In this document: one piece after another, positions 20,284 through 46,791 of the stretch
Layout: the number at the start of each line of letters is the position of its first letter
Numbering within the stretch: the first letter of the stretch is position 1
Virus record (IMG/VR): IMGVR_UViG_3300031454_000004
Location: 1-57,960 of that record
Origin: a virus
Taxonomy: Duplodnaviria; Caudoviricetes
Strand: one strand, 5' to 3'
DNA length: 57,960 nucleotides
Notes under the pieces: generated by a model
Told to the model about the DNA's origin: nothing
Databases searched by the model: none
The model's input: only the letters and a program-made list of their open reading frames with translations
Program-made: the position numbers and the translations under genes

Positions 20284-20369
20284 CCATTCATAATTCATAA
20301 TTTATAATTCATAATTCAGACCATATCCTAATAAAAAATCCAATCAAAAATTCTTAAAAAACCAATACA

Positions 20370-21368
20370 ATGACTATTGATGTATCAGCAGTTGTAGCAC
20401 AGTGGGGCGCCTATTATGTTGACCAGGGTCAAAACCAGGCAAGCATAAAATCAGCGCTGTACAGGCTAAGCGAAACAGCAGCCCTGTTTCAAAACCGCCC
20501 AACGACCGACACGTATTTTCGCTCAACATCTGCACAGATGACGAGTGTGTTACAACCTTTCCAAAAGTTGTTTACACCCAAAGGCCTTCTGAAATTTACG
20601 CCCAATGGGTTCCCGCTTTTCAACATCAAGATAGACTTCGATGTTTTTCCTGATGAGGTTAAAAACAGCTATCTGGGATTTTGGGAAAGCCTTGATGAAA
20701 ACGATCGTGGCAAATGGCCGTTGATCCGCTACATCATCGAAAACCACATTCTTGCCAGCAAGGCGCAGGATATGGAAAGCAGCGTATCGTTTGGCGGTAA
20801 ATATATTGCCCCCATTGCCGGTGTTGCAAGCCCTGCAGCCGACAGTATGGACGGCATTAAAGCAGTATTGAAGAAATACAGTATCGCAGGCCGCTTAAAC
20901 TTTGGCAACGGCCCGTTAGCAATGGGTGCACCCGCTGCCGACCCCGTAGCATTTTGCACACAGGTAGAAGCATGGGTTGACAGTATTAACCCCGAGTTGC
21001 GCAAAACAATAGACTTTATTGTGATGAGCCAAACACTCGCCACCCGTTACCAGCGTGGTAAGCGCATAAAATATGGCGCCATTCAAAACTTCCTTAGCGG
21101 TATGACCAAGGATGACCTGGTAACGATAGAAGACTTCTCCGACATTGCGGTAAAAGGTTTTTTAAGCCATAACGGCAGCACCATTATATGGGCAACACCA
21201 AAAGTTAACCGTATCCGCCCCATTCGTAAAGCAGTGTTGGAAAACACCTTCAGGGTAGAAAGCTACCGCCGCGAAGTATCGGTTTACACCGACTGGTGGG
21301 AGGCGCTCGAATTTGAAGTGCCCGAATTAGTGGTTGTAAATGACAGTCCTGAATTAGCAGCACCGTAA
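20370..21368 (+). CDS. Major capsid protein (HK97-type inferred)
   Basis: 332 aa directly after the protease/scaffold; size and position typical. Confidence 0.75.
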   Translation: MTIDVSAVVAQWGAYYVDQGQNQASIKSALYRLSETAALFQNRPTTDTYFRSTSAQMTSVLQPFQKLFTPKGLLKFTPNGFPLFNIKIDFDVFPDEVKNSYLGFWESLDENDRGKWPLIRYIIENHILASKAQDMESSVSFGGKYIAPIAGVASPAADSMDGIKAVLKKYSIAGRLNFGNGPLAMGAPAADPVAFCTQVEAWVDSINPELRKTIDFIVMSQTLATRYQRGKRIKYGAIQNFLSGMTKDDLVTIEDFSDIAVKGFLSHNGSTIIWATPKVNRIRPIRKAVLENTFRVESYRREVSVYTDWWEALEFEVPELVVVNDSPELAAP

Positions 21369-22041
21369 AACCCTCACTCCACCCTCTCCCTTTAAGGAAG
21401 AGGGCGGAGTGATTAAACAATAATTTTTTCAACCTCTCCCTGTGAAGGGGATTTTAAAAAACTTTTTTATGTCAAATAAAAAAACAGATAAAAAAACAGC
21501 GCCTGAAGTAAAAGCTGATCAAGCAGCACAAAAACAAATACCAGGCGGCGAAACACCGGGTAAAGAAGAATTGGGCGCAAAGCTAAAGACTGTGCCCGCA
21601 GAGCAGCCAGCGCAGCCATCAGCAGCGCAAACCGATGCTGAAAGAATAGCCACACTTGCGCAGGTGGTTGAAGTGCCCGAGTTAGTGGTTGTAAATGACA
21701 TTGCTGAATTAGCACCAACACCGTAAACCCTCACCCTGCCCTCTCCCTTCAAGGGAGAGGGTGGAGAGATTAAATAATAATTTTTTCAACCCTTCCGTGT
21801 GAAGGGGATTTTTAAAAACTTTTTTATGTCAGATAAAAAAACAGAATTGGGCGCAAAGCTAAAGGCTATAGAAAAAAGAGAGCCTGAAGTAAAAGCTGAG
21901 CAAGCTGCACAAAAAAAAATACCAGGCGAAACACCGGGTAAAGAAGAATTGGGCGCAAAGCTAAAGGCTATGCCCAAAGAGCAGCCGGAGCCGTCATCAG
22001 CAGAGCAAACCGATGCTGAAAGAGTTGCCACACTTGAGCAG
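21315..22041 (+). repeat. Diverged tandem duplication of ~355 bp
   Basis: 21315-21668 and 21670-22041 both contain the capsid 3' end, a CCCTCTCCC hairpin and the 5' part of the next gene. Confidence 0.9.
21469..21726 (+). CDS. Chimeric small protein created by the duplication
   Basis: N-terminus is paralogous to 21826-22371; C-terminal EVPELVVVND.. matches the capsid C-terminus. Confidence 0.55.
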   Translation: MSNKKTDKKTAPEVKADQAAQKQIPGGETPGKEELGAKLKTVPAEQPAQPSAAQTDAERIATLAQVVEVPELVVVNDIAELAPTP

Positions 22042-22371
22042 GAAAAAACCCAGTTGCTGGTAGAAGTTGCCGCCCTTAACCAGGAGATAGGCAGAATAGC
22101 CAACGAGCGCGACTCAACCATTATGGTTAACCAGGATCTTACCAACAAGATTGAAACCGGCGTAAAAGTAGAAATGGTTGATCCATCAACAGCCAACAGG
22201 ATCTCTGCCGAAAGCTTTAAATCCGAAGGCAAAGAGTATGAGTTTGCTTTTGCACGAATGACAAACAAAGACGGTGTAATAACTGCCAACGAAGTTATTG
22301 CCAGCGAAGCATTGCAACGCCAGTTGATCGAATCGGGCAGCGGAATGATCCGCCTTAAAAAAACGCATTAA
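21826..22371 (+). CDS. Head-associated hypothetical protein (charged N-terminus, coiled coil)
   Basis: Located after the capsid gene; internal ELGAKLKA repeat. Confidence 0.6.
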   Translation: MSDKKTELGAKLKAIEKREPEVKAEQAAQKKIPGETPGKEELGAKLKAMPKEQPEPSSAEQTDAERVATLEQEKTQLLVEVAALNQEIGRIANERDSTIMVNQDLTNKIETGVKVEMVDPSTANRISAESFKSEGKEYEFAFARMTNKDGVITANEVIASEALQRQLIESGSGMIRLKKTH

Positions 22372-22463
22372 AAACAAGAAGATAGGAGACAGAATTATGA
22401 ATTCATAATTCATAATTCATAATTCATAATTCATAATTCTCATCATAATTCATAATTCTCATC

Positions 22464-23003
22464 ATGGCAACCCTGTATAAAAAAATACTTAAAGCCGATC
22501 AAAAAAATACCGAAGGCGGCTATAAAAACGTGGTTCTTTTTGCACCCGTTGCATCCTTTCTGGCTCTGGCTAAACCTGCCCCTGGTGCAAGCCCTGCTTT
22601 GGGTGACGGACTTAAAATAACTACCGACCACACCTTTACCTCACCCGGAGGTTGGTATAGCTGGCTGTGCACAAAACACAGCGTAACCATTACCGGCGAA
22701 ACAACCGGCGATGTTGCCAAAAGCCTGGTTTGGAAATCGAAGTTTCATTTATTGGGCGATAGCGCCAGCACACAGGAGCAGTTGCAAAACATGCTGAACG
22801 ACGACATGATATTCCTGTTAAAGGATGGCGCATGTCTTACCGCAGCAGAGTATGTACAACTTGGTAACGAGTGTAATACACCCGATGTAACCGTAACCTT
22901 TGATGGTAAAACCACCAAAGAAGGCTTAAAGGAATATATTGTTGAAGTAACAGTTAAGGCAGCAAAATACTGGTATAGCGGAACAGTCGTTGAAGTAGCT
23001 TAA
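22464..23003 (+). CDS. Putative major tail tube protein
   Basis: 179 aa, beta-rich; N.GG...V.F.P start, YVQLG..P motif and C-terminal WYSG. Confidence 0.6.
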   Translation: MATLYKKILKADQKNTEGGYKNVVLFAPVASFLALAKPAPGASPALGDGLKITTDHTFTSPGGWYSWLCTKHSVTITGETTGDVAKSLVWKSKFHLLGDSASTQEQLQNMLNDDMIFLLKDGACLTAAEYVQLGNECNTPDVTVTFDGKTTKEGLKEYIVEVTVKAAKYWYSGTVVEVA

Positions 23004-23110
23004 AAAATTCAGAATTTAGAATTATGAATTCAGAATTGACCATTCATAATTCATCATTAACCATTCATAATTCATAATTCATAATTAATCATAATTCATA
23101 ATTAATTCTC

Positions 23111-23428
23111 ATGACCGAAGAAACTAAACCAATCGTTTTTATTGACCAGGAAACTTTACAGGGTTTTCAGGCGCTGGTAACTGAAGATCCGATGGTGCAT
23201 ATTCCAGGAGTTTACTCGGGCCAGTTAAGTGCGATTACCCCTGCAGTTGCTGCCGGGCTGGTAAAACGCAAAAGCAACCTGTTAAAAGCCAAAGTGGCTC
23301 CGGAAGAGGTAAAAGAACTGGCTAAAGCCGAAAAGGCAGAAGCAAAAGCAGAAGCCAAAGCAGACCGGACAGAAGCCAAAGACCTGCCACGGGAGGAAGC
23401 TAAAAAGTTTCCCGATCCTAAGAAGTAA
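23111..23428 (+). CDS. Hypothetical protein with KAEA-rich tail
   Basis: ORF followed by a terminator. Confidence 0.55.
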   Translation: MTEETKPIVFIDQETLQGFQALVTEDPMVHIPGVYSGQLSAITPAVAAGLVKRKSNLLKAKVAPEEVKELAKAEKAEAKAEAKADRTEAKDLPREEAKKFPDPKK

Positions 23429-23460
23429 CCATTTTCAACTTATATAGAAAAACCGTAAAA

Positions 23461-23489
23461 ATCCCTGCCGCCTTCGGCGGGGATTTTTT
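23461..23489 (+). terminator. Intrinsic terminator
   Basis: ATCCC(TG)CCGCC-TTC-GGCGGGGAT followed by a T tract. Confidence 0.7.
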
Positions 23490-23565
23490 GCATTTACCCA
23501 ACACTTCTATAACAATCCATTTAACTTTTTATTTGCAGTTTTGAAAAGTGTTATTATGTTTGTAG

Positions 23566-23738
23566 TGCAAATCAGTACCCAACTAATGTCACATCTTCCA
23601 TTACAAACATTTAGGAAAACTTCTTGGCCGGCACACGGGTGTAAGTCCCGTAACTTATCTGTTGGTGACAACAGGTACTGGTTTGCAGTGACCGGCCTAT
23701 TCTATAATCTTCTTATTTTTCTAAAATGCAAACCAGTA
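23566..23738 (+). ncRNA. c4-like antisense RNA with upstream and downstream targets, upstream of the antirepressor operon
   Basis: Cloverleaf at 23626-23697; its GGTACTGGTTTGCA segment is complementary to 23566-23579 and to 23727-23738; TATGTTTG -7 box at 23555-23562. Confidence 0.6.
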
Positions 23739-24055
23739 AAAATCACACAAGCACTTCCGACAAGGCTCGGAATCTTATCCAACAGAACCTCTCTATTATT
23801 GATGAAGACACGCTCGCCCAGACATTCGACTTAGTTCGGGGGCGAGACTCGGGCCACCTAAAATCAGTTATGTTCGACTGCCTGGCAGAGTACATTATGG
23901 TCATGTCTCTAACGGAGGATCGCCGGGCAATGGTTTTATACAATTACCGTAACGTCTGCGAGTTGATCGACTTCACATTTTTCATTTTTAGAAATCCTGT
24001 AGAAGACGCTGAGCGGTATAAGAAGGCGTTGCTTCTATTTTCACAACTTTCATAA
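23726..24055 (+). CDS. Hypothetical protein in the icd-like position before the antirepressor
   Basis: Its start codon overlaps the antisense target. Confidence 0.6.
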   Translation: MQTSKNHTSTSDKARNLIQQNLSIIDEDTLAQTFDLVRGRDSGHLKSVMFDCLAEYIMVMSLTEDRRAMVLYNYRNVCELIDFTFFIFRNPVEDAERYKKALLLFSQLS

Positions 24056-24074
24056 ACTTATAAAAAATATTACA

Positions 24075-24632
24075 ATGGAAAAGACAAACAACATAATTGC
24101 CCGTATTAACCACGTGGCTATTATTGTAACTCAAAAAGAAAAACTGGTACCGATTAAGCCCATTTGCGAGGCATTAGGAATTGACGATAAGTCTCAAAGA
24201 CAGAAGATAAGTGAGGATGAAATTTTATCTTCAACTGGGGTGCTGAGCACCTTAGTTGCCGCAGATGGAAGAGGGCGTGAAATGTTCTGTTTACCCCTCG
24301 AATTTGCATTCGGTTGGCTATTTTCTATCAACCACAAAAACGTAAAGCCAGAGGCGCAGGAAGCAGTAAAGCAATACAAGATGCAATGTTACCATGCACT
24401 TTACAGGCACTTTACGGAGTACGCTGAATTTGTCCAGGACAAGCAAAAAGAACTTGATGAAGCACTCGAAGTTAGAAAAGTGGCAAAAACTGATTTCAAT
24501 AAAACTAAAACTGTATTAAGGGACGCAGATGATAGTATCGAAAAGGCAAGACATCTAAACTTCGATGACTGGAGGGCAAGAAAGTCGCAAATAGAAATGG
24601 ACTTTAAAGAGGCAGACGAGTTTGAAGAATAA
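24075..24632 (+). CDS. Phage antirepressor (P22 Ant N-terminal domain)
   Basis: VPIKPICEALGID..SQ..KI, ADGRGREMFCLPL...GWLFSIN...VK, YKMQCYHALY. Confidence 0.9.
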   Translation: MEKTNNIIARINHVAIIVTQKEKLVPIKPICEALGIDDKSQRQKISEDEILSSTGVLSTLVAADGRGREMFCLPLEFAFGWLFSINHKNVKPEAQEAVKQYKMQCYHALYRHFTEYAEFVQDKQKELDEALEVRKVAKTDFNKTKTVLRDADDSIEKARHLNFDDWRARKSQIEMDFKEADEFEE

Positions 24633-24684
24633 AAGCACTACCTTTAATGTGCCCTACATTACATTTACTGAAAAGTGAATTCCG

Positions 24685-24712
24685 AAAAAGCCTTGCAATT
24701 GCAAGGCTTTTT
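24685..24712. terminator. Bidirectional terminator
   Basis: AAAAAGCCTTGC-AATT-GCAAGGCTTTTT, a perfect palindrome. Confidence 0.75.
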
Positions 24713-24744
24713 GTATTATATTGGAGCACTAAAATGTTTGAACC

Positions 24745-25395: not shown

Positions 25396-25411
25396 GTTAT
25401 AATTACTTTAA

Positions 25412-25695: not shown

Positions 25696-25735
25696 CTTAC
25701 TTTAAGTTATATCCCCCGCCTCATGCGGGGCTTTC

Positions 25736-25774
25736 TATTGTCCTTTCCATGCCTATACAAGCTGTTTACTTTTA
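25736..25774 (+). promoter_or_regulatory. Putative late promoter, copy 2
   Basis: TATTGTCCTTT-N20-TACTTTTA. Confidence 0.65.
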
Positions 25775-25778
25775 CTAA

Positions 25779-30832: not shown

Positions 30833-30969
30833 CCGATATTGTTTCAGCACCTTTAAATGTTTGCGCCCCCGGTTTCTAAAAAAACCGGGGGCTTTTTTTA
30901 TGCGTCGCAACTACCCCCGACAACATGAATTCATAATTCATAATTCCTAATTCTGAATTATAATTGCTT

Positions 30970-32708: not shown

Positions 32709-32742
32709 AGAATGATGAATTAAGAATTAAGAATTATGAATT

Positions 32743-32874
32743 ATGAGTAATAATAAAATCTTTGTGCTTCTGACTTTAATAATAGTTGGTGTGGCGGTTT
32801 TGCTTCATGTAATTTATGTAGAATTATTCTTGCTTTGGGTATGGCTGATGATAAAGGTTGGAGAGCAACCATAA
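32743..32874 (+). CDS. 43-aa hydrophobic peptide between heptamer arrays
   Basis: MSNNKIFVLLTLIIVGVAVLLHVIYVELFLLWVWLMIKVGEQP; the start and stop codons lie in the flanking repeats. Confidence 0.45.
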   Translation: MSNNKIFVLLTLIIVGVAVLLHVIYVELFLLWVWLMIKVGEQP

Positions 32875-32938
32875 TTCATAATTCAGCATTATAAATTAAA
32901 ACAAAGTGTCTCTTATAATAACATGAAAACTAAAACCA

Positions 32939-33151
32939 ATGAAACAGGATCCAAAATTAGTGGCAGCAAAAGAAGATAATGAACGTGAGGTTAAGCATAT
33001 ATGCTCACGCTTTAAGATACCTATTGCTGCGGTGAGAAAAGTTATGATGGATACCGGCAAAGACGGAAGGCCTTGCAGAAGCAGAAAAATAATTTACGCT
33101 GCACTGCGGAAAGAGGGATATGTGATTAATGTAAAAAAGAAAACCGCCTAA
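32939..33151 (+). CDS. DUF3606-like small protein
   Basis: D.KLV......EV......F......VR.......G..R..I pattern. Confidence 0.5.
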   Translation: MKQDPKLVAAKEDNEREVKHICSRFKIPIAAVRKVMMDTGKDGRPCRSRKIIYAALRKEGYVINVKKKTA

Positions 33152-33217
33152 TTCAGAATTATGAATTCAGAATTGACAATTCATAATTTATAATTCATAA
33201 TTATAAATTAAAACAAA

Positions 33218-36458: not shown

Positions 36459-36512
36459 ACCGCAACATAAATTCATAATTCATAATTCTAAATTCTTAAT
36501 TAATAATTGCCT

Positions 36513-38198: not shown

Positions 38199-38263
38199 GT
38201 TAGGAGATAGGAGTTTTGAATTATGAATTATGAATTATGAATTATGAATTATGATACCCCACA

Positions 38264-38464
38264 ATGAAAATGATGGTAGTAGATAATAAATATGATTTTG
38301 GAGATATGGTTTATTTGAAGACAGATCCAGATCAATTAAAGCGGATTATTACAGGCATCCACGTTTTTCCGGGCAACGCAATTTCTTACACGGTAACACA
38401 GGCAGGCACTGAATCACAACATTACGAGTTTGAAATATCAGCAGAAAAACAAATTATAGAATGA
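38264..38464 (+). CDS. Small SH3-like phage protein
   Basis: NKYDFGDMVYLKTDPDQ. Confidence 0.6.
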   Translation: MKMMVVDNKYDFGDMVYLKTDPDQLKRIITGIHVFPGNAISYTVTQAGTESQHYEFEISAEKQIIE

Positions 38465-38477
38465 CTTTGAAGATTGA

Positions 38478-38870
38478 ATGAAAGAAGTTATAAACATACC
38501 GTTTCCGTTAAAAAAGTTTGTTACATGGACGGCGATAATAATTGTGTTTGCAGTTGCAGTATGGATTGCAATTAAATGGAATAAACAACTGGTACCGCCA
38601 GCGGCATATAAAGCTTTAATGGATAGCACCAACCAACGGATAATGCAGCAGGATATGGTAATAAAAAGCGTGTGGGAACGGGTAAAAGAAGTGGAGGCAG
38701 ACATTGGCCGGTTAAACAAAAACGGAACCGCTATTAAGCAGAATATTCAAAGCAACACAAGCCGTCGAAGTGATATAAAAACAGCCCATGAAAAAATTAA
38801 TAATACTGTTGACGCTTATACTGATGACGACATTGAGCGGTATTTGCAGCAGCACTACGGACACAAGTAA
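38478..38870 (+). CDS. Spanin-like inner membrane protein
   Basis: N-terminal TM followed by a coiled coil. Confidence 0.5.
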   Translation: MKEVINIPFPLKKFVTWTAIIIVFAVAVWIAIKWNKQLVPPAAYKALMDSTNQRIMQQDMVIKSVWERVKEVEADIGRLNKNGTAIKQNIQSNTSRRSDIKTAHEKINNTVDAYTDDDIERYLQQHYGHK

Positions 38871-39222
38871 AAGCGAATATAAAAAAAGCTATATCCGCGC
38901 TTTAATTGCAGATGTAGAGATGGGTAAGATCTATAAATATGAAATGCTTAGGTATGACAGCTTAACAACACTGTATCAAAGTTATGCTGCAAACCGGGAT
39001 AGCATTATTGATGCAATGACAACAACGGATTTAGGAAAGGACACCATTATCAATTCTTTAGTAATTGTAACCAAAGATTTAAAAAAACAACAGGAATATA
39101 CTTTGGCATGGGTAAAAGGGATTAACACCGAGTTACGAAGGCAGAAAGTAAAAACGTTTTTCAACAGGGTTCTTAATGTGTTGGTTATAGGCACAGGCAT
39201 TTATTTGTTTGTAAAAAAATAA
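38788..39222 (+). CDS. Overlapping spanin-like exported protein
   Basis: Signal peptide with Cys (LSGIC) and a C-terminal TM; overlaps the preceding gene by 83 nt. Confidence 0.45.
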   Translation: MKKLIILLTLILMTTLSGICSSTTDTSKSEYKKSYIRALIADVEMGKIYKYEMLRYDSLTTLYQSYAANRDSIIDAMTTTDLGKDTIINSLVIVTKDLKKQQEYTLAWVKGINTELRRQKVKTFFNRVLNVLVIGTGIYLFVKK

Positions 39223-39280
39223 TTCATCATTCAACTACCCTTCCACAAGCTTAATCAGTAAATAATTCATCATAAAAACC

Positions 39281-39781: not shown

Positions 39782-39795
39782 GTGGGTGAATTATC

Positions 39796-39889: not shown

Positions 39890-39912
39890 ATGCCTTGTTG
39901 GTTTACACTTCC

Positions 39913-39951: not shown

Positions 39952-39967
39952 TAATTCATCTCCTTAA

Positions 39968-41821
39968 ATGGCAACACAAATAACAGAAAGGCCGCATACT
40001 TTTAATTTTTCTGAAAATGAAATAAGGTATGTGTTTAATGTAAATGATCCGGCGGCGGCGGGCTGCGCTGTTCAGGTGGAATTAGTTTACTTTAAAGAGG
40101 GTATTGCAGCAGCACAGAAAATAATAAGCTTTGCCCTTACGCCCGATGCGGACGGAACCGTTTATTGCCATGTTCAAAATTATTTAAAGTCGTTTTTAAA
40201 ACCGCAACTGCCCGATGTTGTTGCAGATTATGCATCAGCAATTACCACACAGGTAAAAAGGTTTTATATTAAGTACCGCCAGGTTACCAATGCCAGCGCT
40301 AATACCGAATGGATAGACGATAGCGCCAATACCAAAACAGTGCTGTTAGGTGGCGTGGAAAGAATGAAATTTAAACGCAATAACTTTTTTGTCAGTTACC
40401 TATTCGATACAAAGGCATGGCTAACCTGGCAGCCCAAAGGAAGCTTTGTTTATATTAACCAGCCACATTACTTAACGCTGCTTATAGCAGACGAAACGGT
40501 TAAAGAATTTACCGTAAGGGTACGAACTGTTTTTACCGATGGCACTATAGATAACACTTCGGAAGCCACCTTTAAAACCAGTGTTGATACCCCGCTTTGG
40601 CGCATTGATGCAAGCGTAAAAAAGTGGGAGCTCGACACCTTCAACACAAGCAAAAACATTTACTATTATGAAATAAATGCCATAAGCGGCAATATTATTT
40701 TAGCGCTTCCACATAGGTTTTACATACAATATAACCCGGTGTATGCTTATTGGGATTTTAATTATTTCAACAGCCTTGGCGGGATGGATTTTGTAAGGGT
40801 GGCAGGCGAAACTTTAATTAGCGCCGATGTAAACAGCGAAGACGTTGAGCACATTATTTACCGCGATGCATTAAACACTGACAAGCCGCAGGAGCAATAC
40901 ACCGCCACCAACTTTGTAAAGAAAGACGTGTATAAAGGCGATGCCGGTTTTATGCAAACCACCAGGCAACAGGAAGCATTGCTGGAGCTGCTGCTTAGCC
41001 GCGGAATTTATGAACTTACAGATGGCAGGTGGATTAAAATAATGAACCTGAAGAAGAGCGCCGACCTGCGCAATACAACCGATAAAAAATGGAGCTTCGC
41101 TATTGAGTGGAGCTATGGTTATGATGATAGTGTGTTTACCCCAAAAGCAATTTTATTAGGCAACGGGCAGGCTGATGCAATACCGGTAACGGTATGTGCA
41201 CCGGTAGAACTTCCAGCCAACATTGTTATGCCAGATGGAGAAGTGGGTACACCATACAATTTTTACATTAACGTGGCTGGTGATGCGCCTTATGTATTGG
41301 CTGAACTAATTAAACCATCGTGGATGAGCGTTCAGCTTGTGGCAAATGTCCTCAACTTTACAGGCAAACCGGATGTAACAGGAACCAATCTTGACGTTTC
41401 ATTTACTTTAAGCAATTGCAGTGGCGCCAACGCTTTGCCATTTACCGATTACATAAATATAACCCAGGCCGTACAGCCAAATATGCCGGAAATTATTGCA
41501 GGCAGTAATACTTTTTCGGGCGGCATAAGAACACAAGTGTTTACTGTTGGGCCAAATGTAAACCCGGGCAACAGGTTTGTTTTAACAGTTTATAACCATA
41601 GCGTAATTGTTACAGCGGTTGCAGGGGATACGCCCAATATAATTGCGGCTAAACTTGCCCAGGCGATTAACAATACTACCGCAGTACAATGGAACGATGC
41701 AAAATTTGCTCCGGCAAGTGGTACGCCGGGCTTTAAGCCAACAGCTACAAGCAGCGGTAATGCAATTACCGCTTCATTAAACGAGGGTAGCCTGTTTAGA
41801 TCGGGAGCATATGTGAGTTGA
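39968..41821 (+). CDS. Distal tail/baseplate-like protein with C-terminal Ig-like domains
   Basis: FNSLGGMDF motif; PDGEVGTPY...P.WM.....FTGKP Ig-like module. Confidence 0.65.
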   Translation: MATQITERPHTFNFSENEIRYVFNVNDPAAAGCAVQVELVYFKEGIAAAQKIISFALTPDADGTVYCHVQNYLKSFLKPQLPDVVADYASAITTQVKRFYIKYRQVTNASANTEWIDDSANTKTVLLGGVERMKFKRNNFFVSYLFDTKAWLTWQPKGSFVYINQPHYLTLLIADETVKEFTVRVRTVFTDGTIDNTSEATFKTSVDTPLWRIDASVKKWELDTFNTSKNIYYYEINAISGNIILALPHRFYIQYNPVYAYWDFNYFNSLGGMDFVRVAGETLISADVNSEDVEHIIYRDALNTDKPQEQYTATNFVKKDVYKGDAGFMQTTRQQEALLELLLSRGIYELTDGRWIKIMNLKKSADLRNTTDKKWSFAIEWSYGYDDSVFTPKAILLGNGQADAIPVTVCAPVELPANIVMPDGEVGTPYNFYINVAGDAPYVLAELIKPSWMSVQLVANVLNFTGKPDVTGTNLDVSFTLSNCSGANALPFTDYINITQAVQPNMPEIIAGSNTFSGGIRTQVFTVGPNVNPGNRFVLTVYNHSVIVTAVAGDTPNIIAAKLAQAINNTTAVQWNDAKFAPASGTPGFKPTATSSGNAITASLNEGSLFRSGAYVS

Positions 41822-41865
41822 ATTATGAATTATGAATGATGAATTATGAATGATGATACCCTACT

Positions 41866-42672
41866 ATGAAAATTTGCAGTTACCATAGCAATTTATATTT
41901 TGACAGCTTTTGCCAGCACGTAGCTGAGATGAAGGCTAAAGGCTTTGATGTTATCCTGTTTTGCATTACCGAAACGGATATGCGTTTTAATATGGAGATT
42001 TTTACAGAGTTTAAAACATATGCTGAAGGCGAAGGGCTGGAGTGCTGGGCTACTTTTTGGGGGTTGTTTGCAGGTGAAGCCGTATGCACTGCAAATGAAA
42101 TTGGGGAAAAGAAAATTTATTTGTCGCGCTGGCTTGAGAAGGTAATAAACATTGGCTTTAATCATATTTTTATTGATGAACCAAAGCAGGCATCGTTAAA
42201 CGAGATCATACATATATTACCTGGCTTTAATAACAATCAACAAGCTGAGGGAGGCAAAGAAGTTAACTTTCACTTATGCCTTAGCGATGAAACTTTTAAC
42301 GAACTGCCGGATGATAAAATAAAGCGATTGCCTTTTAAATCGGTTGGGGTAAGTTGCTACCATTGGGTGAAGGACTGGATTAAGATATGCGACCGTACAG
42401 AAGCCATAACAAAGCGGCTGCATTTGCTGAGGCCTGCTGATAATTTTATTTTTCTGCAGGGCTTTGATATACCGGCGGGATGGGAAGATATACCGATGAT
42501 GGTAAAAGAAATTGCTGAAGTTTACGGCATTGTAAATTTTGGCTTTTGGAGCTTTAGAAGCACCGCCGCTACAGGAAGCAAGCGGCCGGTTAACCATGAA
42601 AAGGTTTGGGAGAAGGTGAGATTTGGGCGGCCCTATAGCATCTCCCTGCAAGGTCAAATGGATGTTTTATAG
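41866..42672 (+). CDS. Accessory protein, possible TIM-barrel hydrolase
   Basis: MKAKGFD, IFIDEP, FLQGF, FGFWSF pattern; lies inside heptamer arrays. Confidence 0.4.
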   Translation: MKICSYHSNLYFDSFCQHVAEMKAKGFDVILFCITETDMRFNMEIFTEFKTYAEGEGLECWATFWGLFAGEAVCTANEIGEKKIYLSRWLEKVINIGFNHIFIDEPKQASLNEIIHILPGFNNNQQAEGGKEVNFHLCLSDETFNELPDDKIKRLPFKSVGVSCYHWVKDWIKICDRTEAITKRLHLLRPADNFIFLQGFDIPAGWEDIPMMVKEIAEVYGIVNFGFWSFRSTAATGSKRPVNHEKVWEKVRFGRPYSISLQGQMDVL

Positions 42673-42693
42673 ACTTAAAAACAAATAAATAAA

Positions 42694-42975
42694 ATGGCAA
42701 AATTTAAAAAGAAGCCTGTAGTTATTGATGCTATCACATTTCAGGAGTTCGTAGAGTACGGAAAACAAAACAGTGGAAACATTGTCCACGGTATGCCATG
42801 GAGTTTTGAGTACAGGGGACATCCGGTAACACACGAGAATGATAAATGTTATCAAATACCAACACTTGAAGGCATCTACAATTTCACGCCGGCCGATATG
42901 CTAATTATAGGCGTCAAAGGAGAAATTTACCCATGTAAAATTGATATTTTCGAGATGACTTACGAGCCTGTATAA
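42694..42975 (+). CDS. Widespread small phage protein (KKPVVI..TLEG..GEIYPCK..IF..TYE family)
   Basis: Recognisable motif set; function unknown to me. Confidence 0.7.
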   Translation: MAKFKKKPVVIDAITFQEFVEYGKQNSGNIVHGMPWSFEYRGHPVTHENDKCYQIPTLEGIYNFTPADMLIIGVKGEIYPCKIDIFEMTYEPV

Positions 42976-43109
42976 GCGTGGTTTGTGCGAATTGTGATCT
43001 CGAAACATCCCGTTATTCCGGCAGGGGGATTGCTTCGTCGTACCTCCTCGCAATGACGTAACAGATCATTTATCATTCAACATTCATAATTCATAATTCA
43101 TAATTCGTA

Positions 43110-45281
43110 ATGATCGGGATAAAAGTAAACGGACTATTTTTAGAACTGAAGCCCGGAACGGCGGCAGAAATAGAACGCAAAAGCCCTTTTTTTGCTATTG
43201 ACGAAGTTGCCGCAGAATATACTACCCCCCTTAGCTTTAGGTACACAGAAAATAATGCGATAGCGTTAGGTTTTATTTACCAGTATTATACAAAGAGACT
43301 CAAAAAGAAGGTAGCCGTAGAAATTTACGATGGCACCAGCTTTAAATATAAAGCTACCCTGGTTGTTGAAACCGGTAAGATGAATATGAACAGGCTTGAA
43401 GATTCGGAACTTAGCGGCTACCTGTTGTTTGGAATCAGCGATTTTTTTCAGGCGGTGAAGGGCAAGAAACTTTCGGAACTTCAGCTGGGTGGACTTAGAA
43501 CTTTTACCTGGACGACAAAACTGCCTTTTGACGGGAGCAACGGCTTTTGGCAACACATTCACCGCACATGGATTGATGATACGATACCTTATGTGTTTGT
43601 GCCTATACGGAACGAACATTATGCCGGCGAAAACGGCGATGTGGACTGGATGAATAAGCTGGACATTACTTCGACAACGGCAAATAAGATTTGGTACGAC
43701 TTTAATAACCCGCTGGTGCCGCAGATACGTTTGCCTTACCTGCTGCAGAAGATATTTGAGGAAGCAGGCTTTGAAGTGGATTTTACAGGGCTGAACGATG
43801 CAGACTGGCGCAGGCTGCTACTGGTTAACCTTACCGGTGTTAACTGGCTTACGACAACGCAAACCGCTGCCGGTATTGGCCCCGCGCCGTCAGCAACGAT
43901 TACGATAGATCTTAAAAAACATTTGCCGCAGGACAAGACGGTAAGCGACTTTCTTGTTCAGTTGTTTGGGCGCTATTGCTGGGCGCCGCTGTTTGATGTA
44001 GTGCAGCGGAAAGTGAGGTTAGTGGCCGGTAAAGAACTCTTTAAAGGAGGCAGGCGAAAGGATTGGACGATGTACGCCGAGCCTGTGTTTGACAGCAGCT
44101 TTAACCAGGATAAGAAGATATTCGCGTTTACGAACGAGATTGACGGTAATGATCAACTGCCTTCGGCGCCCGACTTTACAGGGGCGCGGTTCAGTGCTTC
44201 GGTTATTAATTTTCAGCAGTTGCCAATTAACCCGGGGCCGGAACTGAAGGGAAGGATCGCCTACGTTTATCTTGAAAACCAATGGTACCAGGTGCAGCTT
44301 GACGAGACAACGAATAAGTACGCATGGAAACTTTTTGCCGATAATATTTATAACGAGGAGCCGAAGAATGCCACCGATACCATCAGCACTACGATTAGCA
44401 CTTTGCCTTATTATTTTACGCGGTACCGCAAACCAAACGCTACGGCGAATGAATATTTGTATGGGTTCTTCCCGATGCTGAACCAGGAGGCCACTACGCC
44501 GATAGGTTACCGCACCCTGCTTTACCACGGTATGACGAATGAAACCCGTGATAACGGCGGGGCATGGCTGCTTAAATATCCCCTGGCAAGCAGCACAAGA
44601 AATAACACCACCGGTTTAACGCCGCTTACGTGGAGCAATGTTTACCGGCATAAGTACTTTGCAGGTTCGGTGTTCGAGGTTGATTATGGCATTATCAGCT
44701 ATTGGTGGAAGGATTTTTTGAACATACTTAAGCATGGAGAAGAATGCGTTTTTAAAGTGTGGCTTGAGCTAAACGAGCTGACCAGTTTTGCATGGGATGA
44801 GGAGATACTTATTGAGAATATTCCTTACCTGGTTACACAGATAACCGAGCCTATGCCGTATAGGGGATTTGTACAAGCCACACTTAAGCGGTTGTTACCC
44901 GAGGAACCGGAAGTGGTTGCTGTTGATGCGGATAACAATGTGGTAAGTGGTGTTTTTGCGCGGCTGTCGGTTTTTAATACCAGGAATAAAGTGAACGGTT
45001 CGTTAACGCACCGGATATGCGATGTGAAGGTGAATTTGTACGGTGATGCTGCGGGAACTATAGCTTTTAAGCCGCCATCGGTACTGTATGTGCTGGTGAG
45101 GCAGGCTAACCTCCACAACGATAACAGTGTAACTACCACAGAGGATTATCTCGGTGTTGACAGCAATGAGAGAGTGATACTTTCGGGGGTGGATTATGAT
45201 GTTTACGCCTCGGGCGTATTGATTAAGAAGATGACCTACACGTTGCAGCCGAGCGCGGCGAGGGATTATGTGGTGATGTAG
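43110..45281 (+). CDS. Tail tip/hub protein
   Basis: N-terminal L.L.P....IE..SPFF.....YT.P......N...LG motif; 723 aa. Confidence 0.65.
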   Translation: MIGIKVNGLFLELKPGTAAEIERKSPFFAIDEVAAEYTTPLSFRYTENNAIALGFIYQYYTKRLKKKVAVEIYDGTSFKYKATLVVETGKMNMNRLEDSELSGYLLFGISDFFQAVKGKKLSELQLGGLRTFTWTTKLPFDGSNGFWQHIHRTWIDDTIPYVFVPIRNEHYAGENGDVDWMNKLDITSTTANKIWYDFNNPLVPQIRLPYLLQKIFEEAGFEVDFTGLNDADWRRLLLVNLTGVNWLTTTQTAAGIGPAPSATITIDLKKHLPQDKTVSDFLVQLFGRYCWAPLFDVVQRKVRLVAGKELFKGGRRKDWTMYAEPVFDSSFNQDKKIFAFTNEIDGNDQLPSAPDFTGARFSASVINFQQLPINPGPELKGRIAYVYLENQWYQVQLDETTNKYAWKLFADNIYNEEPKNATDTISTTISTLPYYFTRYRKPNATANEYLYGFFPMLNQEATTPIGYRTLLYHGMTNETRDNGGAWLLKYPLASSTRNNTTGLTPLTWSNVYRHKYFAGSVFEVDYGIISYWWKDFLNILKHGEECVFKVWLELNELTSFAWDEEILIENIPYLVTQITEPMPYRGFVQATLKRLLPEEPEVVAVDADNNVVSGVFARLSVFNTRNKVNGSLTHRICDVKVNLYGDAAGTIAFKPPSVLYVLVRQANLHNDNSVTTTEDYLGVDSNERVILSGVDYDVYASGVLIKKMTYTLQPSAARDYVVM

Positions 45282-45339
45282 TCAGTTATGAATTATGAAT
45301 TATGAATTCAGAATTAGTAATTATCAATTATCAATGAGA

Positions 45340-45804
45340 ATGAATACGCAATTAATGTTTAGCAGTATTTCTAATGAGTGGGAAACTCCAAGGGATTTGG
45401 TAGATAGGTTGAATGACGAATTTTATTTTACATTAGATCCTTGCTGCACCACTGAAAACAAAACATGTCAAAATTTTTTCACTATACAAGACGATGGATT
45501 AAACAAAGATTGGACTGGACATAATGTTTATGTAAATCCGCCTTACGGTAGGGAAATTGGCAAGTGGGTTAAAAAATGTTACGAAGAAAGCAGGAATGGA
45601 ACATTATGTGTAATGTGTATTCCTGCAAGAACGGATACAAGATGGTTTCACGACTATATACAAGGCAAAGCGGAAATACGATTTTTGAAAGGAAGATTAA
45701 AGTTTATAAATCGACTTCTACCGTCCTATAATGAGAATGGGAATTTTAAAGTATCGCCTGCTCCATTCCCTTCGATGATTGTGATCTTTAAGCCTTACAT
45801 ATAA
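45340..45804 (+). CDS. Phage DNA N6-adenine methyltransferase (Dam-like)
   Basis: EWETP, FTLDPC, DGL..DW, VNPPYG, PARTDT.WF, FLKGRLKF, APFPS. Confidence 0.9.
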   Translation: MNTQLMFSSISNEWETPRDLVDRLNDEFYFTLDPCCTTENKTCQNFFTIQDDGLNKDWTGHNVYVNPPYGREIGKWVKKCYEESRNGTLCVMCIPARTDTRWFHDYIQGKAEIRFLKGRLKFINRLLPSYNENGNFKVSPAPFPSMIVIFKPYI

Positions 45805-45879
45805 AAAGAGTAAAATCATCTCTTGATGTTCCCAATTCATAATTCATAATTCATAATTCTGAATTATTCTTTGTGGATT

Positions 45880-45918
45880 GATTGTCCTTCTTAAGCAGTT
45901 GGCTTAATTATACTTTTA
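45880..45918 (+). promoter_or_regulatory. Putative late promoter, copy 6
   Basis: GATTGTCCTTC-N20-TACTTTTA. Confidence 0.55.
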
Positions 45919-45981
45919 CAACTTCACGTTTTTCATAACATGGAAATTGGTACCGGGCGGGGTTTTTACCCTGCCTTTTTT

Positions 45982-46020
45982 CATTGTCCTTTCCGCCGTT
46001 GTATTGTCCGCCCAATTTTG
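45982..46020 (+). promoter_or_regulatory. Putative late promoter, copy 7
   Basis: CATTGTCCTTT-N20-CAATTTTG. Confidence 0.7.
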
Positions 46021-46045
46021 TTACTTCAAACCAACATCAATTACC

Positions 46046-46351
46046 ATGGGCAAGAAATCGAAGTTTAAGGCTATAAGGCGACAAGCCGATGAATTACCGG
46101 TATTAAGCAGGGCGCAGCCATTAACCCAAAGACTTAGCGGCGCTGAAGTGCTTGCTACAATGGGTATACCCTAAATAGATAATGTACCTGTTTTACCAGA
46201 TATGAATTATAAAATAAAGGGAGTGGCCACTGTGCCTGTAAATCATAAGAGGTATATGAAGAAGATGTATAACCGGTTTGGACAGCAGGGGGTTGATAAG
46301 TATATAACTGCAGTAAAAAAGCGCAGCAACGAATTAGCGCTAAAAGCATAA
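46046..46351 (+). pseudogene. Hypothetical gene interrupted by an in-frame TAA at 46172-46174
   Basis: MGKKSKFK...MGIP* continues in the same frame as IDNVPVLPD...NHKRYMKKMY...ALKA*. Confidence 0.6.
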
Positions 46352-46356
46352 TAAAT

Positions 46357-46704
46357 ATGAAATACGAAAAAAAACTATGGGATTACAATGCAGAAGTTAA
46401 CCGCGTAATTGATGGCGACTCGGTAGAGTTGATTATTGATGAAGGCTTCAGGCACTCGTGGCGGGTAAGCTGCAGGATGAAACATATTAATGCGGACGAA
46501 CTTAGAAGCACCGATCCGCTTACCAGAGCAATGGCACAAAAGGCACGGGATTATTTAATTAAGCGGCTGCCTAAAGGCACGAGTGTTTATATTATCAGCC
46601 GCAACCTGGATAAATACGGCCGGCCCGAAATTGATTTGTTTTTGAACGATACAAATATTAACCAGGAAATGCTGGACAAGGGTTTGGCGGTTCCGTTTAT
46701 GTAA
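46357..46704 (+). CDS. Thermonuclease (SNase-like) family protein
   Basis: RVIDGDS, R...INADE, DKYGR, INQEMLDKGLA. Confidence 0.9.
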   Translation: MKYEKKLWDYNAEVNRVIDGDSVELIIDEGFRHSWRVSCRMKHINADELRSTDPLTRAMAQKARDYLIKRLPKGTSVYIISRNLDKYGRPEIDLFLNDTNINQEMLDKGLAVPFM

Positions 46705-46791
46705 AGAATTCAGAATTAAGAATTAAGAATTATGAATTCATAATTTATAATTCTTAATTGATTGATCATTCATAATTCATAATTAACTTAA

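Follow-up and report, generated by a model that had tools for sequence, protein, structure and literature searches.

Heptamer arrays in the phage genome

The window, an entire linear IMG/VR virus record of 57,960 nucleotides from a metagenomic phage that is ~70% complete, carries two kinds of heptamer array, which we call L ("left"), (ATGAATT)n, and R ("right"), (AATTCAT)n, both read on the + strand. TRF recovered period-7 arrays of the AATTCAT/ATGAATT family at every site named in an earlier note on this DNA, and they are genuine and exceed chance: with up to 1 mismatch allowed and both strands counted, the 14-mer ATGAATTATGAATT had 41 matches, whereas shuffled sequences predict 0.06 and none of 100 shuffles had as many. 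Chaining of units placed R array starts at 4015, 20285, 22400, 23027, 30928, 32873, 33150, 36470, 43081, 45834, and 46735 and L array starts at 32715, 38216, 41818, 45288, and 46704. All of these are intergenic, and the intergenic gaps at 4500, 18884, 21369, 23429, 24633, 25396, 39782, and 42673 are array free. Because the window is the entire viral record, it holds no host chromosome in which arrays could be counted.

The arrays take three forms (Table 1): four short complete L|R hairpins, about four lone R arrays (those at 4015, 20285, 30928, and 36470 have no L partner), and four split hairpins around cargo genes. The direct adjacency of L and R arrays that had been described at 22391-22463, 23006-23110, 33150-33205, and 46705-46790 is present at all four places, and the four gene-enclosing segments were likewise all found (array pairs 32715/32873, 38216/39223, 41818/43081, and 45288/45834).

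TABLE 1 Arrays and enclosed (cargo) genes in the window
Feature	Position	Strand	Remarks
R array, CATTCAT/AATTCAT, 5 units, lone	4015..4049	+	Ends 6 nt 5' of start codon at 4056
R array, lone	20285..20319	+	Adjoins protease stop (20283); 50 nt 5' of putative capsid gene (20370)
L|R palindrome, 2 L and ~8 R units to ATG 22464	22391..22463	+	MFE -14.1 kcal/mol, z -2.3
L|R palindrome, ~4 L units (NNGAATT), GAATTG-A-CAATTC-type center, ~10 R units to ATG 23111	23006..23110	+	
R array, lone	30928..30965	+	Between intrinsic terminator (30865-30892) and promoter-like CATTGTCCTTT motif (30970)
L arm	32715..32742	+	Begins 6 nt past stop of core gene 31335-32708; reaches cargo ATG
Cargo: ORF for 43-aa hydrophobic (membrane-type) peptide	32743..32874	+	Homolog at junction in 0/4 relatives
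R arm and 21-nt leader (ATTATAAATTAAAACAAAGTG)	32873..32910	+	First copy of 39-nt direct repeat
Cargo: 70-aa basic ORF	32939..33151	+	Sole cassette with direct repeats on both sides
L|R palindrome and second 21-nt leader copy	33150..33217	+	5' of core gene 33218; MFE -13.4 kcal/mol, z -2.7
R array, lone	36470..36508	+	Between dispersed hairpin repeat (36427-36453) and promoter-like motif (36513), 5' of muramidase gene
L arm, 5 units and 13-nt tail (GATACCCCACA...) up to cargo ATG	38216..38263	+	
Cargo: three ORFs (66, 130, and 144 aa)	38264..39222	+	Absent between flanking core homologs in 4/4 relatives
Degenerate R arm (...AATTCATCATTCAAC...AATAATTCATCAT)	39223..39280	+	Duplex with L arm only -17.8 kcal/mol
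L arm, 5 units and 13-nt tail as at 38216	41818..41865	+	Overlaps stop of core gene 39968-41821
Cargo: 268-aa ORF and 93-aa ORF (phrog_419)	41866..42975	+	268-aa homologs in Bacteroidota-type sources
R arm, ~5-6 units, to ATG of core gene 43110	43060..43109	+	Dispersed hairpin repeat (43033-43060) just 5'
L arm	45288..45333	+	Directly past stop of core gene 43110-45281
Cargo: orphan Dam-type N6-adenine DNA methyltransferase	45334..45804	+	PF05869 E 2e-29; TIGR01712; PADLOC oMTase 2.6e-52
R arm 3' of methyltransferase gene	45834..45865	+	Duplex with 45288 L arm -32.6 kcal/mol
L|R palindrome, 5 L and ~6 R units	46704..46790	+	Between SNase-like gene and core gene 46792; MFE -19.9 kcal/mol, z -3.1

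The arrays at 30928, 36470, and 45834 lie 5' of a promoter-like motif and so may fall outside the transcript of the next gene. In the L arms at 38216..38263 and 41818..41865, the TGA of a 7-codon upstream ORF (uORF) shares bases with the cargo ATG; the arm at 45288..45333 holds an 11-codon uORF whose TGA overlaps the ATG at 45334, and an array ATG at 45295 is in frame with the methyltransferase gene. The stop/start overlap is thus seen in three of the four cassettes. The left ends at 38216 and 41818, earlier judged almost identical, match at 52/56 positions, a stretch that takes in a 21-nt tail outside the array leading up to the ATG. A 39-nt direct repeat composed of R units and the 21-nt leader flanks the cassette 32939-33151.

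Enclosed genes and their relatives

Profile searches including Pfam and PHROGs matched the 70-aa basic ORF to no family and suggested no function for the three ORFs of 38264..39222. The eight enclosed ORFs have a G+C content of 0.33 to 0.41, versus 0.39 to 0.48 for 13 core ORFs (one-sided Mann-Whitney P = 0.0004), and pure L or pure R units stand at 8/8 cargo boundaries.

We compared the junctions with those of four independent relatives (L170 = L172, L171 = L175, L168 = L173, and L174; 33 to 61% amino acid identity), in which no AATTCAT arrays were found. Homologs of the core pairs 31335-32708|33218-34174 and 39968-41821|43110-45281 abut or overlap in 4/4 relatives, and those of 37587-38198|39281-39781 abut in three, L170 holding one 45-aa ORF between them. 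Elsewhere, homologs of the genes flanking 22391..22463 lie 30 nt apart in L171 without an array; the palindrome at 23006..23110 lies at the left end of a segment of 2.7 kb (23004-25778) that L171 lacks and that has no array at its right end; and L170 matches the layout at the 36470 site with the heptamer GTCGTTC. Since core neighbors are adjacent in relatives that lack AATTCAT arrays and cargo G+C is lower, the segments 32709-33217, 38199-39280, and 41822-43109 are lineage-specific additions with breakpoints within the arrays. The opposite outcome, cargo conserved like core genes and breakpoints unrelated to the arrays, was not what we found: the three segments are absent in the relatives and their breakpoints fall in arrays. 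The relatives are too distant (33 to 61% identity) to show whether hairpin or cargo came first or by what mechanism the cargo was inserted.

A rival explanation, that cargo blocks were misjoined at shared repeats during assembly, is scarcely credible. Arrays and the dispersed repeat do occur in many contigs of the sample, and Logan contigs break at 36431-36453, 38225-38245, 39862-39884, and 43028-43056. However, single Logan contigs cover 30417-36453, 38225-39884 (cargo and the core gene that follows), 39862-43056 (core gene, L arm, and cargo), and 43028-48500, and the joins match the gene order in the four relatives. Contigs of the source run cross all cassette boundaries at an even depth of 9.7 to 12.1, the one exception being the perfect array of 35 nt at 38216; since this run may be the source of the viral contig, the check is not independent.

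Mirror arrays in bacteria and other phages

The exact 28-mer (AATTCAT)4 occurs at 33 viral-contig loci and at least 124 genome loci, the hosts among the matches listed being Bacteroidota, cyanobacteria, Lentisphaerae, Ruminococcus, Anaerolineae, and Nitrospirota, and many heptamer families fill gaps of unrelated phage contigs. In Hymenobacter actinosclerus, 9 of the 10 array stretches fetched read stop-(ATGAATT)n-interior-(AATTCAT)n-start; the tenth (L191) has two half sites, one on each side of a lone gene. Hairpins of mirror arrays are kept in place, with covarying arms, in bacteria: at two orthologous Hymenobacter junctions, a mirror-array hairpin is present in 29/29 and 30/30 species (59/59) with species-specific units, the median fold z at the first junction being -4.9. 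Cognate arms pair at -28.6 kcal/mol versus -16.4 kcal/mol for noncognate arms, the cognate value being reached by 0 of 10,000 permutations. None of these 59 hairpins holds an inserted gene, and they therefore lend no support to apex insertion as a general process. Arm orientation is not universal, as one Bacteroidales contig illustrates, in which the housekeeping gene purD stands between L and R arms.

Among arrays elsewhere with gaps of up to 54 nt, L-then-R pairs numbered 12 versus 2 for R then L; of 198 arrays elsewhere, 35 stood 5' of starts in the R orientation, which is free of AUG, versus 11 in the L orientation; and past stop codons, 50 L versus 56 R arrays showed no orientation bias. 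In an alternative that we consider improbable but with which the R preference at starts agrees, the arrays form no hairpins and serve as single-stranded leaders in RNA or as platforms for protein binding, the mirror layout around cargo being a by-product. In a host lacking Shine-Dalgarno pairing, R arrays would then be AU-rich 5' leaders devoid of AUG and L arrays uORF leaders tuning cargo translation, and the 7-nt period would fit one OB-fold protein (S1 or cold-shock protein) per unit. R arrays indeed end 0 to 6 nt from the start codons at 4056, 22464, 23111, and 43110, uORF stops overlap cargo ATGs as described above, and composite arrays in phage contigs G002-G004 keep a single orientation and order relative to genes. 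For TAACTGA repeats, translational regulation and candidate binders have been proposed, and CspB binds heptamer repeats with one protein per unit (MacGregor 2015, PMC4679880). However, the covariation of arm with arm at orthologous Hymenobacter sites argues for pairing, some phage arrays lie 5' of promoter-like motifs or directly past stop codons, and past stops neither orientation prevails.

Another view would deny the arrays any role in expression or gene flow, treating them as neutral or selfish DNA that has grown by slippage and intrahairpin conversion in whatever noncoding DNA is present, whether as heptamer microsatellites or as MITE-like palindromes, with moron insertion having merely made gaps that arrays later colonized. 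The relatives' compact junctions with few heptamer arrays, the rapid turnover suggested by units that differ among Hymenobacter species at the same site, and the reported excess of heptamer simple-sequence repeats in bacteria, for which polymerase slippage is a possible cause (Rehm 2015, citing its reference 33; PMC4692102), all accord with this idea. We nevertheless hold it to be very improbable: at least eight gaps in the window are array free, the element is held at the same junction in all 59 Hymenobacter cases across genus-level divergence, and neither the start-codon orientation bias nor the constant L-before-R order is expected under neutral growth.

Proposed readings: gene capture or hairpins with cargo at the apex

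Exactly at the L|R boundary, then, lie genes that were added in this lineage. The earlier note had accounted for the enclosed genes by repeat-guided gene capture and exchange; in a concrete version of that idea, L|R palindromes would be favored for landing or exchange. We regard this as possible, if unlikely. Capture might proceed by breakage at a hairpin or cruciform apex, with repair taking in foreign DNA, or by recombination between arrays common to coinfecting phages and host, for which the PeSL cassettes of T4-type phages are a precedent (PMC2839356). The placement of 4/4 cargo blocks at the boundary, the purity of the units there, the absence of the cargo from 4/4 relatives, and its lower G+C are in keeping with capture. 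So are the 56-nt left end common to two cassettes, the L orientation 5' of cargo in 4/4 cassettes versus 11/46 starts elsewhere, and the 39-nt direct repeat, which is what integration of a circle by homologous recombination should leave behind. The arrays are also common to other DNA of the sample, the bin with the 38216 array having a depth of 59.9 versus ~10 to 12, with many loose ends.

Several observations stand against capture. No integrase, transposase, or recombinase was found when 78 ORFs were scanned against Pfam and 53 against PHROGs in this ~70% complete record. Homologous recombination between inverted arms yields inversion, not excision of the content. The contigs of one run showed neither an excised form nor an empty site, the joints listed coming from other loci, and the sole genomic cargo homolog inspected, that of the 268-aa ORF in a Chitinophagaceae genome, lacks arrays. 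The variable blocks 23004-25778 and 34175-37586 lack arrays on at least one side. In Xanthomonas, gaps that bear repeats are, as reported, more conserved than controls (Rehm 2015, PMC4692102). What stands of the capture proposal is that cargo was added with breakpoints in arrays; its integron-like machinery is unsupported, given the missing recombinase, the generic arrays, the gene-free Hymenobacter junctions, and the array-free cargo homolog. The arrays do not constitute a phage-specific system of capture, and the alternative offered alongside capture, RNA or protein-binding arrays, suits the wider data no less well.

The reading that we favor, and to which we give about an even chance, is that the arrays are host-type heptamer-array hairpin elements with cargo (morons) at the apex. 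On this reading they are phage members of a widespread class of intergenic element, consisting of two mirror heptamer runs able to pair as a long hairpin and filling the gap from a stop codon to the next start. Within the phage, arms are complementary across cargo in two of the four cases, at -41.6 kcal/mol over ~48 nt for the 41818 L arm with the 43060..43109 R arm and at the value in Table 1 for the methyltransferase cassette. However, the arm pairs are poor in the other two (-17.8 kcal/mol), for none of the L arms is the cognate R arm the best partner by duplex energy, the lone R arrays allow no local hairpin, and the complete hairpins of the phage itself are lopsided and weak, folding modestly (-13.4 to -19.9 kcal/mol; z between -2.1 and -3.1).

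Under the favored hairpin reading, the arms would act in cis on a polycistronic transcript and could pair as a stem that sets the cargo apart, comparable to 23S rRNA intervening sequences (IVS) and to rRNA precursors before the RNase III cut. The AUG-rich L arm would supply the small uORFs, whose TGA/ATG overlap would allow termination-reinitiation at the cargo. Cargo may have entered the apex by ordinary illegitimate or break-repair insertion with no need for a dedicated recombinase, the apex being the sole place in such a gap where an insertion would spare both arms.

23S rRNA IVS offer a likeness, holding an ORF as the split hairpins of the phage would hold morons. Excision of IVS by RNase III has been reported (PMC4990558). 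Other DNA also has genes between arms of this kind, and genes of the IVS protein family PF05635 adjoin AATTCAT arrays in L054, L147, L068/L069, and L162. Paired convergent GGGAATC heptamer arrays in Xanthomonas (PMC4692102) are a further published precedent. The heptamer repeat class is already known; its nested arrangement around accessory genes is unusual.

Heptamer arrays and their setting in the window

Two mirror-image heptamer arrays recur on the plus strand of the window: (ATGAATT)n, here called L, and (AATTCAT)n, here called R. Arrays were defined by TRF period-7 rows together with unit chaining, and they are as real as the earlier note had held: the 14-mer was found 41 times at ≤1 mismatch, against 0.06 expected, with TRF period-7 arrays at every place that it named. 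The units are tandem head-to-tail copies of 7 nt, and all 16 array loci lie between open reading frames (ORFs), many abutting start or stop codons; both properties are those of the heptamer class of simple-sequence repeats (LSSR/STRR-like). At least eight gaps between window ORFs are free of arrays. Four places at which L and R are directly adjacent, previously read as empty slots, were likewise recovered as close, complementary, foldable arrays on opposite strands, the arrangement of the Xanthomonas type, with predicted hairpins of moderate strength only (minimum free energy −13.4 to −19.9 kcal/mol, z −2.1 to −3.1). The left ends at 38196 and 41799, described earlier as almost identical, agree at 52 of 56 positions, non-array tail included. 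A 39-nt direct repeat consisting of an R array and a 21-nt leader precedes the core gene at 33218 and again the 70-aa ORF at 32939. Neither this right leader nor the left tail (13/21 nt) was found in any other fetched locus.

Features of the window and of array-bearing loci
Feature	Location	Strand	Source or remark
L arrays (starts)	32715, 38216, 41818, 45288, 46704	+	
Short L stubs	22391, 23006, 33152	+	
R arrays (starts)	4015, 20285, 22400, 23027, 30928, 32873, 33150, 36470, 43081, 45834, 46735	+	
Degenerate R array	39223	+	
CATTGTCCTTT, exact	18942, 30970, 36513, 39913, 45982	+	
CATTGTCCTTT, one mismatch	25736		
Dispersed hairpin repeat	36427-36453, 39795-39830, 43033-43060; L170 3387-3410		39795-39830 is the reverse complement
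Head maturation protease	18985-20283	+	Pfam/PHROGs; capsid-like gene next
Tape-measure protein	26156-30220		Pfam/PHROGs
Tail or baseplate-like gene block	window		family unassigned
Muramidase	36557-37153	+	Pfam/PHROGs
Dam-type methyltransferase	45334-45804	+	Pfam/PHROGs
SNase-like and PLD-like nucleases	window		Pfam/PHROGs
Ant-like protein, KilA-N protein, HTH protein	window		Pfam/PHROGs
PF05635 genes	L054 1549-1911; L147 109-339; L069 1571-1912; L162 323-628		

A dispersed hairpin repeat of the GATTGCTTCG…CGCAATGACG type adjoins arrays and cassette edges and is also present in L170, a locus of a distant viral relative. Read depth at two of its copies was 54 to 99, versus about 10 to 12 elsewhere; other DNA of the sample, presumably from the host, therefore carries many copies of it.

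The window is an entire linear IMG/VR record (57,960 nt). Nearly all of its genes are on the plus strand, and CheckV estimates the record to be ~70% complete. Among 78 ORFs searched with Pfam and 53 with PHROGs in this ~70% complete record, no integrase, transposase, or other recombinase family was found, including any IntI-type tyrosine recombinase beside the cassettes. No tRNA was called in the window, Rfam found no rRNA there, and no Rfam family reached its gathering threshold there or at three Hymenobacter loci. In PADLOC and NCBIfam searches on cargo, names were given to the methyltransferase and the nuclease only. Promoter-like sites of the sigma-70 type numbered 54, not above the 47±8 of shuffled sequences, in a scan whose model does not extend to Bacteroidota promoters. 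The only strong terminator, at 30865, lies outside the arrays, and no promoter or terminator was recognized inside the L…R blocks by scans that do not cover the host promoter type.

The host is probably a member of the Bacteroidota, because of a promoter-like motif, CATTGTCCTTT, and a Segetibacter aerophilus homologue of a cargo protein (53%, the species being named by one source). The motif has five exact plus-strand matches, and nine matches at ≤1 mismatch versus 1.9 expected. It lies 30 to 45 nt upstream of four annotated gene starts and, at the fifth, just within the long ORF called there. Downstream of it is a TAnnTTTG-like box; together the two are probably a Bacteroidota-type phage promoter. 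The motif is also kept in L170 (position 3450).

Several other features of the window were recorded. Positions 34162 to 35109, among the tail-region genes, encode a protein with two PAS domains and no output domain, which is unusual in a phage. Pectate-lyase-like beta-helix domains occur in two very large ORFs at 10891 to 18514 (1720 and 824 aa), which probably encode depolymerase tail spikes. A 378-bp unit directly behind the capsid-like gene (21313 to 22042) occurs twice in tandem with 82% match; in each copy, a G+C-rich hairpin (CCCTCACCC…GAGGGCGGAG type) accompanies the end of one gene and the beginning of an ORF rich in lysine and glutamate. It looks like a recent duplication. The end of an intergenic stretch at 56770 to 56847 resembles the 3′ part of a tRNA (GGTTCGAATCC…CCGCCA), for which ARAGORN calls no tRNA; it could represent an incomplete tRNA or what is left of an attachment site.

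Genes enclosed by the arms

We favor, at about even confidence, a reading in which the arrays are heptamer-array hairpin elements of the host type, with morons at the apex, arms that would act on the transcript, and an L arm that would feed upstream ORFs (uORFs) into the cargo start. Cargo here means the accessory genes between an L and an R arm, in four blocks of 0.13 to 1.1 kb.

No close relatives were found when viral contigs were scanned with the capsid-like, 723-aa, and 268-aa proteins one at a time, or by megablast of 31335 to 45281 against isolate phages; in a set of 5.8 billion proteins, the 617-aa protein has a best homologue of 52 to 53% identity. Profile searches with two tail-region proteins yielded four independent relatives (L170=L172, L171=L175, L168=L173, and L174) with proteins 33 to 61% identical to those of the window; in L170 and L171, no relatives of the head region were found. 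Homologues of the core genes at 31335-32708 and 33218-34174 abut or overlap in all four relatives, as do those of 39968-41821 and 43110-45281, and three relatives have those of 37587-38198 and 39281-39781 directly adjacent, one 45-aa ORF intervening in L170. The L…R segments of 509, 1,082, and 1,288 nt are therefore additions in the lineage of the window. Aligning relatives, as the earlier note had suggested, thus placed the breakpoints of gene presence and absence in the arrays at all three testable junctions, albeit with distant relatives. Like morons, the enclosed genes lie between two genes adjacent in related phages (four of four at two junctions, three of four at the third), and like PeSL units, the arrays mark breakpoints of insertion, deletion, or replacement at all three. 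Downstream of the 723-aa gene every relative has different genes; the methyltransferase block therefore occupies a generally variable spot. G+C content is 0.33 to 0.41 for the eight enclosed ORFs versus 0.39 to 0.48 for 13 core ORFs (P = 0.0004), a difference of the kind that characterizes morons. The relatives carry no AATTCAT arrays; L170 has the heptamer GTCGTTC instead, laid out as at window position 36470 (dispersed hairpin repeat, array, promoter-like motif).

The proposal of an integron-like system for repeat-guided gene capture and exchange holds in its pattern, since the "filled" positions are lineage-specific, lower-G+C additions exactly at the L|R boundary. Its mechanism is not supported: the Pfam and PHROGs scans gave no recombinase, and the palindrome is split around the cargo. 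The main rival to our reading retains part of the proposal, namely, an active role for the palindromes, or for shared arrays, in the gain and exchange of genes. We regard it as possible but distinctly less probable. The breakpoints at the three junctions are compatible with it, and two variable blocks, 23004 to 25778 (versus L171 only) and 34175 to 37586, are not array bounded on both sides, which counts against a simple rule. A search of sequencing runs listed a single match, a DNA run, and no RNA run; no excised or cargo-free variants were seen in its contigs. Seven joints in those contigs were considered as excision products and rejected: their short sides (22 to 33 letters) fall in arrays or in the dispersed repeat and are taken as other loci, five of the seven have unrelated letters between the sides, and none of these five strings occurs in the window.

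Another explanation would be that the enclosed genes were joined to the core genes by misassembly. This is very improbable, because single Logan contigs bridge the cargo/core junctions at even depth, in a run that may be the source of the record itself and so not independent.

The orientation of the arms bears on the reading of the arrays as hairpin elements with cargo at the apex. Each of the eight cargo boundaries has a single kind of unit. Core genes in the window have R before the start and L after the stop, the majority rule elsewhere, and all four cargo blocks are reversed, with L before the start and R after the stop. The simplest reading of this reversal is that the arms belong to the core-gene junction, with the cargo at the apex between them. 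Predicted arm duplexes across the cargo reach −41.6 kcal/mol over about 48 nt (41818/43060) and −32.6 kcal/mol (45282/45834); the two other pairs are poor (−17.8 kcal/mol). No L arm in the phage favors its own R arm, and duplex energy follows array length.

The arms would probably act on the transcript. In three of the four cassettes, a uORF of 7 to 11 codons runs from the last L units to a TGA that overlaps the cargo ATG, and in the fourth it extends 5 nt beyond the ATG. On sequence grounds, this overlap has the geometry of termination-reinitiation, through which the L arm could feed uORFs into the cargo start. Across 45295 to 45333, the L array has one open reading phase that continues in frame into the methyltransferase, so that gain or loss of units could give the protein an N-terminal extension or take it away.

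Arrays in other genomes and at Hymenobacter junctions

The exact 28-mer (AATTCAT)4 occurs at 33 viral-contig loci and at >124 genome loci, including Bacteroidota, cyanobacteria, Lentisphaerae, Ruminococcus, Anaerolineae, and Nitrospirota; the arrays are thus not special to the phage of the window. The capsid-like gene of the window is absent from the five array-bearing viral contigs checked, three of which are packed with many heptamer families whose placement follows a fixed order and orientation with respect to genes. In these contigs (G002, G003, and G004; L179-L186), up to about 45 period-7 arrays of many units were seen, and composite sets, (AGATGAT)(GGTTTCA)(AATTATG) for example, recur in constant order and orientation with respect to genes. 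STRR is the name of heptamer repeats in cyanobacteria, and the composite arrays fit repeats of this kind.

Genes also lie between or beside arms elsewhere, among them a 94-aa ORF in another viral contig (L012) and purD in a Bacteroidales contig (L053). Homologues of the 268-aa cargo protein have 42 to 64% identity; a search of 201 Chitinophagaceae genomes found one in a single genome, array-free and overlapping the gene upstream. In that one case, therefore, the arms had not travelled with the gene. Genes for the PF05635 "IVS protein" adjoin AATTCAT arrays at four independent loci (L054, L147, L068/L069, and L162), and a six-frame search of the window gave no PF05635 match at E ≤ 1. At L069, a composite array block is directly repeated on both sides of the PF05635 gene.

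Orientation was also compared outside the window. Close pairs (gap of ≤54 nt) run L then R in 12 cases versus R then L in 2 among 157 fetched loci. By crude ORF calls at 198 arrays, start codons are preceded by the AUG-free R orientation in 35 cases and by L in 11, and stop codons are followed by L in 50 and R in 56, without bias. In Hymenobacter actinosclerus, 9 of 10 fetched stretches consist of a stop codon, (ATGAATT)n, an interior of 20 to 215 nt, (AATTCAT)n, and a start codon; the tenth is a single gene with a half site at either end.

Two of these H. actinosclerus junctions were followed through the genus (L197-L226 and L227-L256), 29 of 30 fetched loci being delimitable at the first. 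A mirror-image heptamer hairpin fills the gap between the same two genes in 29 of 29 and 30 of 30 cases, respectively. The heptamer is species specific and the arms are complementary, e.g., AAGAATG/CATTCTT, GTTAGCT/AGCTAAC, and GTGAAAT/ATTTCAC. Folds at the first junction lie well below shuffles (median z, −4.9). Cognate arms pair at −28.6 kcal/mol versus −16.4 kcal/mol for arms of other species, after removal of 4 near-duplicates from the 29, and none of 10,000 permutations reached the cognate value; the cognate arm ranked first in 7 of 25 and among the top five in 23 of 25. Complementarity is thus kept through evolution in Hymenobacter, as looked for in Xanthomonas-type pairs; the phage of the window has no array-bearing relative. 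An RNA-stem test by asymmetry of G:U versus A:C gave no clear signal, repeat registers slipping in folding. None of the 59 Hymenobacter hairpins holds a gene. This covariation at orthologous junctions suggests that pairing, or copying of one arm from the other, is maintained. The literature searched yielded no paper on hairpins with species-specific complementary heptamer arms in Bacteroidota.

Two further readings were weighed beside hairpin elements that hold morons. The predominance of AUG-free R arrays before start codons would suit a single-stranded leader or a platform for protein, an idea that we think unlikely alongside the Hymenobacter cognate pairing. A neutral or selfish repeat is more improbable still. 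In comparison with MITEs, inverted arms are present, the interiors differ between loci (L192 and L193 excepted), and no target-site duplication was seen by eye at array junctions in the window or the fetched H. actinosclerus stretches.

A broader synthesis, which we offer tentatively and as doubtful, is that mirror heptamer arrays form a widespread, self-complementary intergenic element, shared by bacteria and phages, and that new genes would land preferentially at its apex without the help of a recombinase. A junction would be marked by the hairpin first; captured DNA would then sit in the loop, its expression insulated and metered by the paired arms and the uORF-bearing left arm. Morons, ORF-bearing rRNA intervening sequences (IVS), and "empty" hairpins of bacterial operons would then represent one system in three states. 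Several phyla are rich in heptamer arrays, for which no function has been established over decades. The phage of the window is a compact test object, with the element present within 27 kb in empty form, as a half site, and around genes missing from four relatives. Pairing and processing of the arms in RNA, if borne out, would explain how a phage can bear foreign genes inside an operon of tail genes; if the apex is an insertion hotspot, it would offer a simple physical route to moron acquisition.

Comparison with known systems

Searches of papers found none on AATTCAT arrays, on heptamer hairpins of Hymenobacter or Cytophagales, or on phage genes nested in such arms. Integrons combine attC palindromes with an IntI recombinase; one attC stands at the 3′ end of each cassette, and the direct-repeat logic leads to excision of circles. 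The window resembles them in that promoter-less accessory genes, all oriented alike, adjoin imperfect palindromes, and some positions look empty and others filled. It differs in that no IntI, attI, or Pc was found in the window, the palindrome is split around the cargo rather than placed behind it, flanking direct repeats occur at the cassette at 32939-33151 only, and such palindromes occupy conserved junctions of bacterial housekeeping operons. Morons are extra genes between genes adjacent in related phages, with different base composition and their own promoter and terminator. The cargo matches them in position and composition; no promoter or terminator of its own, part of the moron definition, was recognized inside the L…R blocks by the scans, whose promoter model is of the sigma-70 type. 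In phage T7, intercistronic RNase III hairpins punctuate a polycistronic transcript; those hairpins are unique sequences, whereas those of the window are heptamer arrays.

PeSL regulatory cassettes of T4-type phages were reportedly treated by Comeau et al. in 2014 (PMC4122927). For phages of this type, Arbiol et al. (2010) show repeat-mediated shuffling and mini-circles (PMC2839356). As there, short repeated noncoding modules flank nonessential genes between phage core genes and mark breakpoints. PeSL units combine a promoter with a terminator, are directly oriented, and give mini-circles by recombination, whereas the flanks in the window are inverted heptamer arrays, in which a scan that does not model Bacteroidota promoters found no strong promoter with terminator stem-loop per unit.

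Warrier et al. (2016) show that RNase III excises an ORF-bearing IVS (PMC4990558). In such elements of 23S rRNA (S23p/PF05635 ORF; stem cut by RNase III), a longer transcript holds an ORF between complementary arms; the arms of the window would do likewise, pairing well in two of the four cassettes and poorly in the other two. In contrast, the window element lies outside rRNA and without a PF05635 gene, its cargo consists of unrelated genes, and its RNA processing is putative.

Rehm et al. (2015) report 70 to 75 convergent GGGAATC heptamer array pairs in Xanthomonas campestris and X. axonopodis, note their stem-loop potential, and find repeat-bearing gaps more conserved than control gaps (PMC4692102). 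Shared with the pairs described there are tandem heptamers, a mostly intergenic position, opposite-strand neighbors capable of stem-loops or cruciforms, many loci, and an unassigned function. Unlike G-rich GGGAATC, the AATTCAT unit is AT rich and so has no quadruplex potential; it also stands in a phage, with arms that can be split around genes.

TAACTGA arrays precede start codons in Beggiatoaceae, cyanobacteria, and Bacteroidetes, and MacGregor (2015) proposed translational control and, for some arrays, a role in gene rearrangement (PMC4679880). Those arrays are described there as direct and in one orientation, whereas the window has a mirror-image pair with genes between the arms. The two have in common arrays that reach start codons, an odd spread over cyanobacteria and Bacteroidota, absence from the gaps of close relatives, and proposed roles in translation and rearrangement.
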